Below, piece after piece: positions 38,484 to 44,162 of a DNA stretch of 64,000 bases. The position numbers were made by a program, and so were the translations under genes. Position 1 is the stretch's first letter. Each line of letters opens with the position of its first letter. The notes under the pieces are model-generated. The model worked only from the letters and a program-made list of their open reading frames with translations. It was not told where the DNA came from and searched no databases. The DNA comes from Dictyostelium discoideum (Eukaryota): NCBI GenBank assembly GCA_000004695.1, contig CM000150.2:1664001-1728000 (forward strand), in the 5' to 3' direction.

Positions 38484-41400
38484 TTAATCACTTTCAATTT
38501 CTTCATCTTCACTTCTATCACTTTGAGAACCTAAGCTATCGCCTTCATCAGGTTCTGAAGAAGAGAGTTCTTCATTTGATTCTGGTTCTCCAACTTCAGC
38601 CTCTTCAACACTTCTTGATCTACTACGATCACTAATACTTAAACTTCTACTTGTACTTCTACGACGATGACTAATACTTCTACTTCTACTACGACCACGA
38701 CTAACACTACGACTATAATCTTCATTATCGCTAACATTTGGAGATGATTCACTTTCTACTTCTTTCTCATCATCATCATCATCATCACTACCCATTTTTC
38801 TTAATTTACTACCCTTTGATAGACTACCTACTTTCTTTGTTTGTTTTTTTTGTTTACTACTTGAAACTCCTTTCTTCTCTTCTTCTTCTTCTTCTTCTTC
38901 CTCATCAGAATGATTTGATTTGATTTTCTTTGTTGATTTCTTTGTTGATTTTTTATTAACCTTTTTCTTTGTTTTTCTTTTTTTATTATCATCAGAATCT
39001 GAATAATCTGAACTTTGATCTGAATCATCATCACCATCATCATCATCAGAAGAAAAGAATTCATCACCATTTAATTTTCTTTTATCAACTTTTTTAGTAC
39101 CAAAAGCTTCCGAAGCATTTACACCAGCTAAAATACCTTTAACTTCCATATTTAAAGATTCCAATGTTTTTTTAACTTGAGGTTCCATTGCAATGATTGA
39201 GGAATCACTAGTTTCTTTACCATGAGAACAAATATTATTTAAAATACCATTATGTAAACGAAGATTTTCAATTTCTTTAATAACTCTACCAATGATTTGT
39301 AAACTCTTTTTTTTGACCAATGATTTGAATACTGGAATATATAATTTTATGAAAACGGTTACAAATGAAACGGCTTGTTTTAAAGTTTCAATTAAATAAA
39401 GACTCTTATCTCTTTCTTTTGCTGTTTCAACCAATGATGCATACATTGAAATAAAGAAACTTGAACGTTTGAAAAAGCATGCTGTTTCTTGGTCCGTTTG
39501 AAGGTTTTTATCTTCAATACTACTTTTTAAATTATTAATTAATGCCGAATAAATACTCTTTAAAAATGGTAATAAAGTTGTTGAATTTAATGATGAAATT
39601 TTAAATTCAATACCTTCACCAGTTTCAACTATATTAATGAATTTATTATCATCATCATCATCATCACCACCACCACCTGCTTCTCGATTAATTAAATCAT
39701 CTTTTTCATCATTATCATTTTCTTCATCACTATCACTACTATTATTATTATTTCTTTTATTTTTTGAAGATTGACTAGATGATGAATTAGTTGTTAAAAC
39801 ATTCTTTTTAGAACTTTCATTTCCAAAATATTTCTTTAAATAATTAATTGAAGTTTTAATAGATTCATCTTCATTTGAAGTATGATCGAAATAAGCTTTT
39901 AATAAAACACCAAGTGATTGAGATGATACTTTTTGTTTACCACTTGATATCCAATTTATTGCCAACAAGATACGAGAATAATTATGAATTTGAAATTTCA
40001 TCTCTTCAATATTTTTATTACCAATATATCTTGAACTATACAATGAAATTAATACTTGTAATAGAGTAAAACTTGCTTTAAAACTTTTAGATGAAACAAA
40101 AATTTGAATAAATGATTTGAAAAATGTGAATATACTATTAAAAATTTTAAGTTTTTGTTGATTACGATCACCACCACCACCAACTGGTTGTTGCTGTTGT
40201 TGTTGATCAATATTTTCACCAAGTAATTGATTTGCTTTTGTTGAAATTGAATTTAATAAATCTAAAAATAATTTATGATCATTTTCAGTTTTACTAATTG
40301 AACCACCTGTATGAAATAATTTTTCAAAAATTTGTAAAATCAATTGAATACAATGTTGAGTTATAGTTTGATTATTATTTGACCATTGAATTTGATCACA
40401 TCTTTTTTCAATTTCTTTTTTCAATTTTTTAACTTCATTATCTTTGCTAGCATCATATTCTTCTTCCAATTCAATTTGTAATTCATTCTTTTGTTGTACA
40501 ATTACATCGGTTGATTTAATAAGTTGTAATAATTTCAATCTATTCTGTTTAAATTGATTTGATAAATTTTTTAAATGTTCTAAAAGATATCTAAAAACTA
40601 CACCAGTTTGAAGAATAAATTGTTCATAACTAAATGGTAATTGTATCTTTTCATTATGTAAATGAGATGTTCTATCTGGTGTTGAAACTGTATCAAGTTT
40701 ATTATAAAATTCTTCTAATAAATATAACATTCCATTTGGTTCTAAATTATTTTGATTTGATTTTGAGGTGGTAGTAGTAGTAGTATTATTGGTTTGTGGT
40801 TTAAATAAATGAAAACAAGATAAATCTAATGATCTATAATATGGTTTAATTAATTTTAAATAAGGTTTTTCAATTTCAATTAATGATTCACCTGGTGTAA
40901 CAAAATCTTTTAAATCAATATTATATTTAATTAATTGATTAATTGAATTTGAATTTGCTAATGTTGTTGTTGTTGCGGTGGTTGATGCTGATGTTGGTAA
41001 TTTCTTATTCTTTTTTAATTCAATTGAAAATGGTTTTCTTTGATCAGATTCAAATGTACCATGCGGTATAACAAATGAATTTGAATGAGATAATACCATT
41101 TCAAATTTATCTTCCATACTAATTAATATATTTAATCTATTTAATAATTTTTCATTATTTGATAGTAAAGATTGAGTATGGTGTTGTTGATGTTGATTTT
41201 GTTGATTTTTTCTTAAAGGTATCAATAAAGTTGTAAAAGCATTTAAAAGTTCTCTAATATAATTTGTTGAATAATATAAAGATAAACAATATAGTTCTTT
41301 TTCTTTATCATCTTTAAAATTATGACTATTATTAATTGAAACAATTTCCTTATTAAACATTATAAAAGGATGAGTTAACATTACATCAATCTCTTCTAAA

Positions 41401-44162
41401 GATTGGTCCTTTGGTTGTAAGATTCTAATTAAACGAAAAGCAGAGGATAAACAAAGTAATTTATTATCATCTCTTGTAGTGGTACCTTCTGATAGATTTG
41501 GATAAATACAAATACCTTCGTCACCAAATGTATTACCCATTGAGCCCCAAATCATTGATTTATCATATTGGTTAACCAATTCAATGAAATCATTTTGAAA
41601 ATAACGTTGTGCATATTCACCAATACTATTGGTAACACTTTGATGAAATGGTGAAATCATATAAACATTTGCCAACTCATCAAAAAGATAAGATCTTGCT
41701 AATCTTGATTTATCACAATTTAATAACAATGATTGAAATAATTTTTCATACTCTTCAAATAATTCTCTTGGTAATTGTAATTCATTGTTGTGATTTATAA
41801 TAACTCTTGAAATTCTTGAAATTTGAGAACACATCGAAATTATACCAATCTTTTTATATTTAATTTTTGTTGAAGTAATTTGTTTTCTTGTGAAAATATC
41901 CAGCTCTGTAAAGATTCTACCATTTGGTTCTAATTTATAACTATTTGATGAAATTCTATCTGTATATAATAAAGTACCGAAAATTCTAAATAATGTTCTA
42001 ATTTGTGATTCTGTTAATGTATCTATATAGTCCAATACTCTCTTAATTTCATGAGAGAACTTTATCAACATATCACTACATAATGGTGAACATAATTTAT
42101 ATAAAACCTCTAAACCACAATTAACCTCTGAATTATTACCTGAAATAATATGTGCCAATAACATTGATATTAATTCACGTTGTTGACCTTCATCTCTATA
42201 ACATTTGAATAATAATTCATAAAATGATTCTCCAAATTCTCTAACTTTGGTTTCAATACTTCTAATACAAAAATCACATAATGTTAACATTGTTGTAAAA
42301 TATCTAAATAATAATAATTGAAATAATAATTAGTATTTTAAATCATCATTAAATATTAATAATAATAATAATAATAATAATAATAATAATAATAATAATA
42401 ATAATAATAATAATAATAATAATAATAATAATAATAATAATAATAATAATAATAATAATAATAATAATAATAATAATAATAATATAAACTTACTGTTGTA
42501 ATGCAAATTCATGAGTATAAATTGATTCAATTAATAATTTTTTAGATAATAAACCAGATTTAACTAATTTTTTAAAAATTTTCTCTGTACTCTTATGACC
42601 AAATGAATGAATTAAAACTATTAACCAAAAATCCAATATATTATGTGTGCGTGCTTCTTCAATCTCTTTAATGAATGCATCACATAAATCCTTTTTAAAA
42701 CGTATACCTGATTTTAATGCTTCCAATATTAAATTCTCTGTTGGTTTTCTATCACGATCAGTTTCTTTATTATTTGGATCATTTAAAATCTCTGTTGTTG
42801 ATCCATTTATTAATATTGGTTTTTTTAAATCCAATCTTTCTCTAATAGCTTTTGATGTAATCTAATAATAATAATAATAATAATAATAATAATAATAATA
42901 ATAATAATAATAATAATAATAATAATAATAATAATAATAATAAACTATTAATAAAAACTCATTTAAAGTTTATAAATTAATAAGCTAATAATACATACAG
43001 CTGAATTTTCTTTTGAAGAACTTGTTGATAATAAAAATGTAATTCTCATTGGTAAAATATTAAAATCAGATTCTCTTAATGATTCACCAACTGTTTCTCT
43101 AACATTTGTTAAATGAGCAGAATTTAAATTTAAATTTGCCAATGCATCTAATATTGGTAAAACAAATTCTTCATTCTCTTTATAGATTCCCATTAAAATA
43201 TCAATAAACTCTGAATGACATTCATTATCGACTATATCTGGTAAAAATCTAATAATATCTTTTTTTAACTCTGGATTAACATCTAATAAACCAAGTAATG
43301 TTCCAATTTGTGCTAATAATTGAGGACCATCACTAATTGTATCTAACCATCTTAGTTGTGAAAATATTTTCTTACAAAACCCATTTGTACTAAATAAATA
43401 TATTTAAATAATTAAATATATTAATATATATTATATTTATAAATTAATAAAATTAATAACTTACTCCTCAGCAGCAAAAGTATACATTGAATCAAATAAA
43501 ACATCTAATATTAATGGTTGAACAATTGGTGTTGATAATAATAATCTAATTAAACAAGTTTCTGAAAAGTTATTACCATACTTTTGAATGAAATCATTTG
43601 AAGACTCTGATCTGACTGGTGATAATGCTAATTCTAATATAGACTCATTCTCTATAAATAAGGCAAAACCATCTTTAAAACTTTGTAATTTAGATTCTGA
43701 ACTATTATTATCTCTTGGTGAGTGTAAAGCATTGTTTGATGATGATTGATTATTAAAATAAGTTTCTAAAGATCTCTTAAATGTAACAATATCACTAACA
43801 ATAATTGGATCTTGAATTGACATATGTTTACCTAATACTACTTTAAATTCCTTTGTTTTTGACATTGTTTCATCTAAAAGTTTTTGAAACTCTTGTTTTC
43901 TTTTTGAATTTATTGGTTGTTGTTGTTGTCTTTGTCTTTGTTGTTGTTGTTGTTGATTATCTTTAGTATTAAAATCGGATAAATCATCGTCATTATCATC
44001 AATATTTGATGTAAAAGAACAAGGTGTATCATATAAACGTTGTTTTTTACTATTTTGATCAATGATATTATTATTATTATTATTATTTAAACTTTCATCA
44101 TCATCATCATCTTTTAAATCGTCATCATTCATATCTTCATATTCTAAAAATCTTCTATCCAT
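38484..44162 (-). CDS. Fanconi anaemia group D2 protein (FANCD2) homologue. 4 exons: join(44162..43465,43389..42999,42861..42494,42303..38484), ~1760 aa.
   Basis: Blocks alignable to human FANCD2 from memory: LIRLLLSTPIVQPLILDVLFDSM ~ [23 protein letters not shown] (exon 1). FSQLRWLDTISDGPQLLAQIGTLLGLL ~ [27 protein letters not shown], and VLPILDALANLNLNS...ILPMRITFLL ~ TVPILDVLSSLRLDP...DLPVIIKFIL (exon 2). AHIISGNNSEVNCGLEVL ~ THICSGNEAEVDTALDVL, and VLDYIDTLTESQIRTLFRIFGTLLY ~ [25 protein letters not shown] (exon 4). There is an acidic S/D/E-rich C-terminal tail. Donors GTAAGT/GTATGT/GTAAGT with phases 2/0/2 are consistent. Two introns contain (AAT)n. Confidence 0.75.

Follow-up and report, generated by a model that had tools for sequence, protein, structure and literature searches.

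fncD2 of Dictyostelium discoideum, a FANCD2 homologue encoded by four minus-strand exons

Do four disconnected open reading frames on the minus strand of the Dictyostelium discoideum genome belong to one gene, and does that gene encode a homologue of FANCD2? The question arises from a mechanical listing of open reading frames in the window (the whole stretch of DNA that was analysed, 64,000 nt), in which the frames at 43461-44162, 42963-43193, 42490-42834 and 38484-42290 stand as separate entries. A preliminary description of this DNA had also seen four disconnected frames, with which the mechanical listing agrees, and had joined them into one four-exon FANCD2 homologue. We regard it as nearly certain that this is fncD2 (DDB_G0268216), the only FANCD2 orthologue of D. 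discoideum, with four minus-strand exons and a part in crosslink repair, and no result speaks against this. None of it is new, as public databases and a publication of 2009 cover the gene and its protein, the exon structure and the function in the Dictyostelium Fanconi anaemia pathway.

The exons and introns of the gene are as follows.

43465..44162, minus strand: fncD2 exon 1, 698 nt; start codon ATG at 44162-44160; codons 1-232 and 2 nt of codon 233
43390..43464, minus strand: fncD2 intron 1, 75 nt, GTAAGT...TTTAG, 4% GC; same position in D. citrinum
42999..43389, minus strand: fncD2 exon 2, 391 nt; 95% identity to D. citrinum, gap-free; the chicken FANCD2 alignment crosses both of its junctions
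42862..42998, minus strand: fncD2 intron 2, 137 nt, GTATGT...ATTAG; chiefly a (TAA)31 microsatellite at 42863-42954
42494..42861, minus strand: fncD2 exon 3, 368 nt; 93% identity to D. citrinum, gap-free
42304..42493, minus strand: fncD2 intron 3, 190 nt, GTAAGT...TTTAG; holds an (AAT)44 microsatellite at 42352-42484
38484..42303, minus strand: fncD2 exon 4, 3820 nt, ending in the TAA stop at 38486-38484; residues 486-1758, with the C-terminal tail and the region around the predicted ubiquitination site

When the four exons are joined (698 + 391 + 368 + 3820), the result is a coding sequence of 5277 nt that is in frame throughout and has a single terminal stop. The protein has 1758 amino acids, for which about 1760 had been proposed, and every coordinate of the proposed four-exon minus-strand model is correct. 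The junctions 43465|43389, 42999|42861 and 42494|42303 lie at GTAAGT or GTATGT...TAG boundaries and fall at residues 232/233, 363/364 and 485/486. All three introns have GT..AG ends and a GC content of 4-7%, against 24-26% in the exons. A contrast between low-GC introns and GC-richer exons is usual in Dictyostelium. The alignment to chicken FANCD2 is unbroken across all three junctions.

An exact-sequence look-up found the joined protein under EAL73561.1, XP_647652.1 and UniRef100_Q55F81 (UniProt Q55F81), with 1758 of 1758 residues identical. The Q55F81 entry is named "Fanconi anemia group D2 protein homolog" and is assigned to D. discoideum AX4, DDB_G0268216. Because the joined protein is identical to DDB_G0268216 residue for residue, the proposed exon junctions equal those of the existing annotation. 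The preliminary description had implied that an accurate gene model was needed; however, the identical model is already public. Another D. discoideum assembly contains a 1780-aa allele with 96% identity, and the differences are mainly indels in homopolymer tracts of Asn, Gln, Thr and Ser.

Related Dictyostelium species provide a second view of the gene model. The orthologue in D. cf. discoideum has 1753 aa and 91% identity and that in D. citrinum has 1765 aa and 82% identity (BLASTP); in a MAFFT alignment the same orthologues are 88-95% identical. Both gene models are collinear with fncD2 through all three junctions. The intron positions are the same in these species, whereas the lengths of the introns and of the low-complexity repeat tracts differ from those of fncD2. 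The genomic locus of D. citrinum was aligned over the 5' 2 kb of fncD2, and in this part the exons are 92-95% identical and exon 1 has only indels whose length is a multiple of three. The D. citrinum introns occupy the same positions, keep GT/AG and show 68-77% identity where they can be aligned. Intron 2 has 137 nt in D. discoideum and about 84 nt in D. citrinum, intron 3 has 190 nt and about 85 nt, and the (TAA)31 and (AAT)44 microsatellites have no counterpart in D. citrinum introns 2 and 3. The ATG and the reading frame are kept in D. citrinum. The start codon at 44162 is supported because identity upstream of the ATG drops to only 46%.

Could the true fncD2 mRNA have other exon boundaries, or an extra small intron? 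The low-complexity tracts of exons 1 and 4 could conceal short AT-rich introns. However, the proposed model gives the public protein, the gene models of two other species agree with it at all junctions, and the contrast in conservation between exons and introns is sharp and lies exactly at the boundaries, with exon 1 indels that keep to multiples of three. Vertebrate FANCD2 alignments also cross the junctions undisturbed, and a YFP knock-in after the penultimate codon of the last fncD2 exon gives an expressed, functional fusion (PMC2730050). A different splicing pattern is very unlikely on this evidence. The predicted junctions of fncD2 are supported by canonical signals, by continuity of homology, by conservation across species and by the match to the public annotation.

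The family membership of the protein is clear from profile and structure searches. The joined protein matches Pfam FancD2 (PF14631) with E=1.2e-97 and 328.3 bits, against a gathering score of 27 bits, a similarity far above the level of chance. Residues 89-1296 correspond to profile positions 45-1198 of 1418, and a second matching stretch lies beyond. In a search of PDB chains (E<=0.001) all seven matched sequences are FANCD2, from chicken (6TNF_A, 1.8e-72), human (6VAA_B, 5.9e-69) and mouse (3S4W_B, 3.4e-66). A homologue search with the whole protein was swamped by low-complexity words; with 8000 candidates scored, it retained just 4, namely close relatives and one fungal FANCD2. The claim of homology to FANCD2, for which comparison with the human protein and with the known fncD2 had been suggested as a check, is borne out, as the best characterised matches are all FANCD2 and the protein is that of Q55F81. 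The two blocks that had been named as aligning with human FANCD2 could be located: HICSGNEAEVD pairs with HIISGNNSEVN, and the second, a human block of 17 residues, pairs with VLDYIDTLTESQIRTLF.

FANCI and FANCD2 have a common fold and a distant shared ancestry, and on these grounds the protein could be read as the paralogous partner FANCI, or as another solenoid protein. However, FancD2 is the sole Pfam family matched by the joined protein (E<=0.01), and no FANCI chain in the PDB matches it (E<=0.001). The D. discoideum fncI gene sits at another locus, DDB_G0293476 (PMC2730050). Identity as FANCI was rejected as no FANCI profile outscored FancD2, and a reading of this kind is extremely improbable.

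The identification as fncD2 agrees with what has been published on the gene. Zhang et al. identified the locus as fncD2 in 2009, and its knockout resulted in moderate cisplatin sensitivity (PMC2730050). The same study demonstrated that cisplatin induces a band of FncD2-YFP modified by HA-ubiquitin (monoubiquitinated), that this band is absent in fncL and fncE knockouts, and that fncD2 is epistatic with rev3 and xpf (PMC2730050). Loss of fncD2 causes only mild sensitivity to cisplatin because Xpf bears most of the tolerance (PMC2730050, PMC8529158). A 2021 review counts FancD2, as DDB_G0268216, as an ICL-repair factor that has been verified by experiment (PMC8529158). The long low-complexity insertions, and nothing else, suggest a gene copy that is degenerating or no longer functional, and this exceedingly unlikely reading was rejected, since the 5277-nt frame is intact, the orthologues are highly similar with introns less conserved than exons, and the published knockout phenotype and the expressed tagged protein contradict it (PMC2730050). 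Different splicing, a FANCI identity and a non-functional copy retain, even taken jointly, only a very small share of the probability beside a functional four-exon fncD2.

The residue that receives ubiquitin can be predicted by alignment to human K561 and chicken K563.

41883..41885, minus strand: codon of Lys626 (FTRK*QIT, the asterisk following the lysine), predicted monoubiquitination site

K626 lies in FTRKQITS, which aligns with VIRKQLSS around human K561 and VIRKWLSS around chicken K563. The acceptor lysine motif of human and chicken FANCD2, (V/F)(I/T)RKQ(L/I)(S/T)S, is common to the Dictyostelium protein. K626 is invariant in the three species that were aligned, D. discoideum, D. cf. 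discoideum and D. citrinum. Judged from these alignments, K626 is most probably the ubiquitin acceptor in Dictyostelium FncD2.

A mechanism for FncD2 can be proposed by combining the gene model with the vertebrate pathway. Transcription of the minus-strand gene as four exons would give an alpha-solenoid protein of 1758 aa. Homology to the vertebrate complexes of known structure suggests that FncD2 and FncI form an ID2 clamp. On DNA crosslink damage FncD2 is monoubiquitinated by FncL (E3) and Ube2T (E2) with FncE, and the ubiquitin would most probably be placed on K626. If the vertebrate ID2 complex is a guide, this modification would lock FncD2 and FncI together as a heterodimeric clamp around duplex DNA. 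In vertebrates, it is the monoubiquitination of FANCD2 that makes the clamp close on double-stranded DNA and allows the later steps of crosslink repair to proceed. The knockout phenotype and the damage-induced monoubiquitination dependent on fncL and fncE come from the published work, while the intact frame, the family assignment, the identity to the annotated protein and the conservation of the lysine and of the introns were observed here. The pathway partners are encoded elsewhere in the genome, with fncI at DDB_G0293476, fncL at DDB_G0292744 and ube2T at DDB_G0291199 (PMC2730050, PMC8529158), and all three are absent from the 64,000-nt window.

Upstream of fncD2 lies a divergent neighbour.

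44163..44887, no strand: spacer of 725 bp, extremely AT-rich, from the fncD2 start codon to that of the divergent coiled-coil ORF
44888..47434, plus strand: coiled-coil-like ORF, a neighbour outside fncD2, 848 aa, rich in Glu, Lys, Gln and Asn

The gap to a divergent long coiled-coil gene had been put at about 720 bp and measures 725 bp. The arrangement of the two genes suggests that the spacer may be a shared bidirectional promoter. D. citrinum has a syntenic coiled-coil gene of 901 aa, with the two genes again divergent and about 700 bp apart. Synteny in D. citrinum is kept over an LRR gene, the coiled-coil gene, fncD2, a small 163-aa gene, enolase and an HA2/OB helicase fragment. Pfam scans found no family in the 848-aa coiled-coil neighbour or in the small gene downstream of fncD2. 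At gathering thresholds, a scan against Rfam detected no RNA family at the fncD2 locus or close to it, and the only matches in the window are two tRNAs about 14-16 kb from fncD2.

What is the use of rebuilding a gene that is already known? A correct multi-exon eukaryotic gene was rebuilt from raw sequence at a locus where a bacterial-style track of open reading frames fragments fncD2. The value of this result lies mainly in quality control, and it makes no open question more testable.

The C-terminal tail is the sole feature of fncD2 that goes beyond the known biology of FANCD2.

38484..39065, minus strand: C-terminal extension, about 193 aa (approximately residues 1566-1758), past most of the FANCD2 homology

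An acidic, Ser-rich tail had been claimed for the joined protein, and the last 193 aa do contain 24% Ser and 29% Asp plus Glu. The tail is composed of acidic runs, a Lys-rich block, a block of Arg-Ser dipeptides (SRSVSRGRSRSRSISHRRRSTSRSLSISDRSRSRS) and an acidic end (…EEAEVGEPESNEELSSSEPDEGDSLGSQSDRSEDEEIESD). The extension occurs in all three closely related Dictyostelium species that were compared, and its acidic end is nearly invariant among them. Homology to chicken FANCD2 stops near residue 1592 and the tail runs on for about 165 aa. The Lys-rich block is NLS-like and the Arg-Ser block resembles SR proteins. From this composition it might be proposed that the tail is a regulatory module controlled by phosphorylation and not neutral low-complexity filler, but such a role is doubtful.

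How does the Dictyostelium protein compare with vertebrate FANCD2? The solenoids of human FANCD2 (6VAA chain B) and chicken FANCD2 (6TNF chain A) match the Dictyostelium protein along its length. However, the Dictyostelium protein is longer than vertebrate FANCD2 by about 300 aa. It adds a low-complexity N-terminal extension that is acidic and rich in Asn and Gln, and it has low-complexity insertions rich in Asn, Gln, Thr and Ser. Vertebrate FANCD2 has an acidic C-terminal tail, as the Dictyostelium protein does, but it lacks the Lys-rich and Arg-Ser blocks of the Dictyostelium tail (about 165-190 aa). If the Dictyostelium tail did have the doubtful regulatory role proposed above, it might correspond in function to the acidic tail of the vertebrate proteins with its EDGE motif.

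The bulk of each of introns 2 and 3 of fncD2, the D. discoideum FANCD2 homologue, is a long trinucleotide microsatellite:

42863-42954, (TAA)31 microsatellite in intron 2
42352-42484, (AAT)44 microsatellite in intron 3

Alignment to L001, the D. citrinum locus that carries the FANCD2 orthologue, showed that these microsatellites are absent from the orthologous introns, which are ~85 nt apiece. The D. discoideum repeats look like recent expansions, and their length likely varies from strain to strain.

Two genes adjoin fncD2:

44888-47434, plus strand, coiled-coil-like ORF of 848 aa, rich in Glu, Lys, Gln and Asn, divergent from fncD2
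~36922-37623, minus strand, small gene, apparently of three exons, between fncD2 and enolase

A Pfam scan of the coiled-coil-like ORF gave no match, and its syntenic counterpart in D. citrinum is 901 aa long. An exact-sequence look-up did not find the ORF in the protein collection, and the public model of this gene may therefore depart from the plain ORF through, say, an intron or another start. The three ORF pieces of the small gene open with MMVPYRFLNIVNGLIKSSNEAAMKDVVYELG, include GGFKIYLIVESTAWNKAIRIYNSDHVDSGLDYCG and finish in WTTVYDINIPKEDRTKFGGKALYIYWSNDGTKLF. Its provisional joined model was assigned to no Pfam family at E<=1; the syntenic place in D. citrinum holds a called gene of 163 aa (L001:12244-12940).

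Other ORFs near fncD2, identified by Pfam, are ordinary housekeeping genes:

33493-34824, minus strand, enolase (Enolase_N and Enolase_C, E=1.7e-126)
31570-32967, minus strand, C-terminal HA2/OB part of a DEAH-type helicase
51767-53245, minus strand, purple acid phosphatase

There are also tRNA genes:

24222-24293, plus strand, tRNA-Thr(AGT)
22235-22318, plus strand, tRNA with the four-base anticodon 'gtag', assigned no identity by ARAGORN

The latter is most simply read as an intron-containing tRNA-Tyr(GTA).

A further feature is the C-terminal tail of FncD2:

38484-39065, minus strand, FncD2 tail, residues ~1566-1758

It contains an SR-protein-like block of Arg-Ser dipeptides and a Lys-rich block, flanked by acidic runs, and the last ~40 residues of FncD2 are near-invariant among D. 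discoideum, D. cf. discoideum and D. citrinum. The tail of vertebrate FANCD2 is no more than a short acidic stretch.
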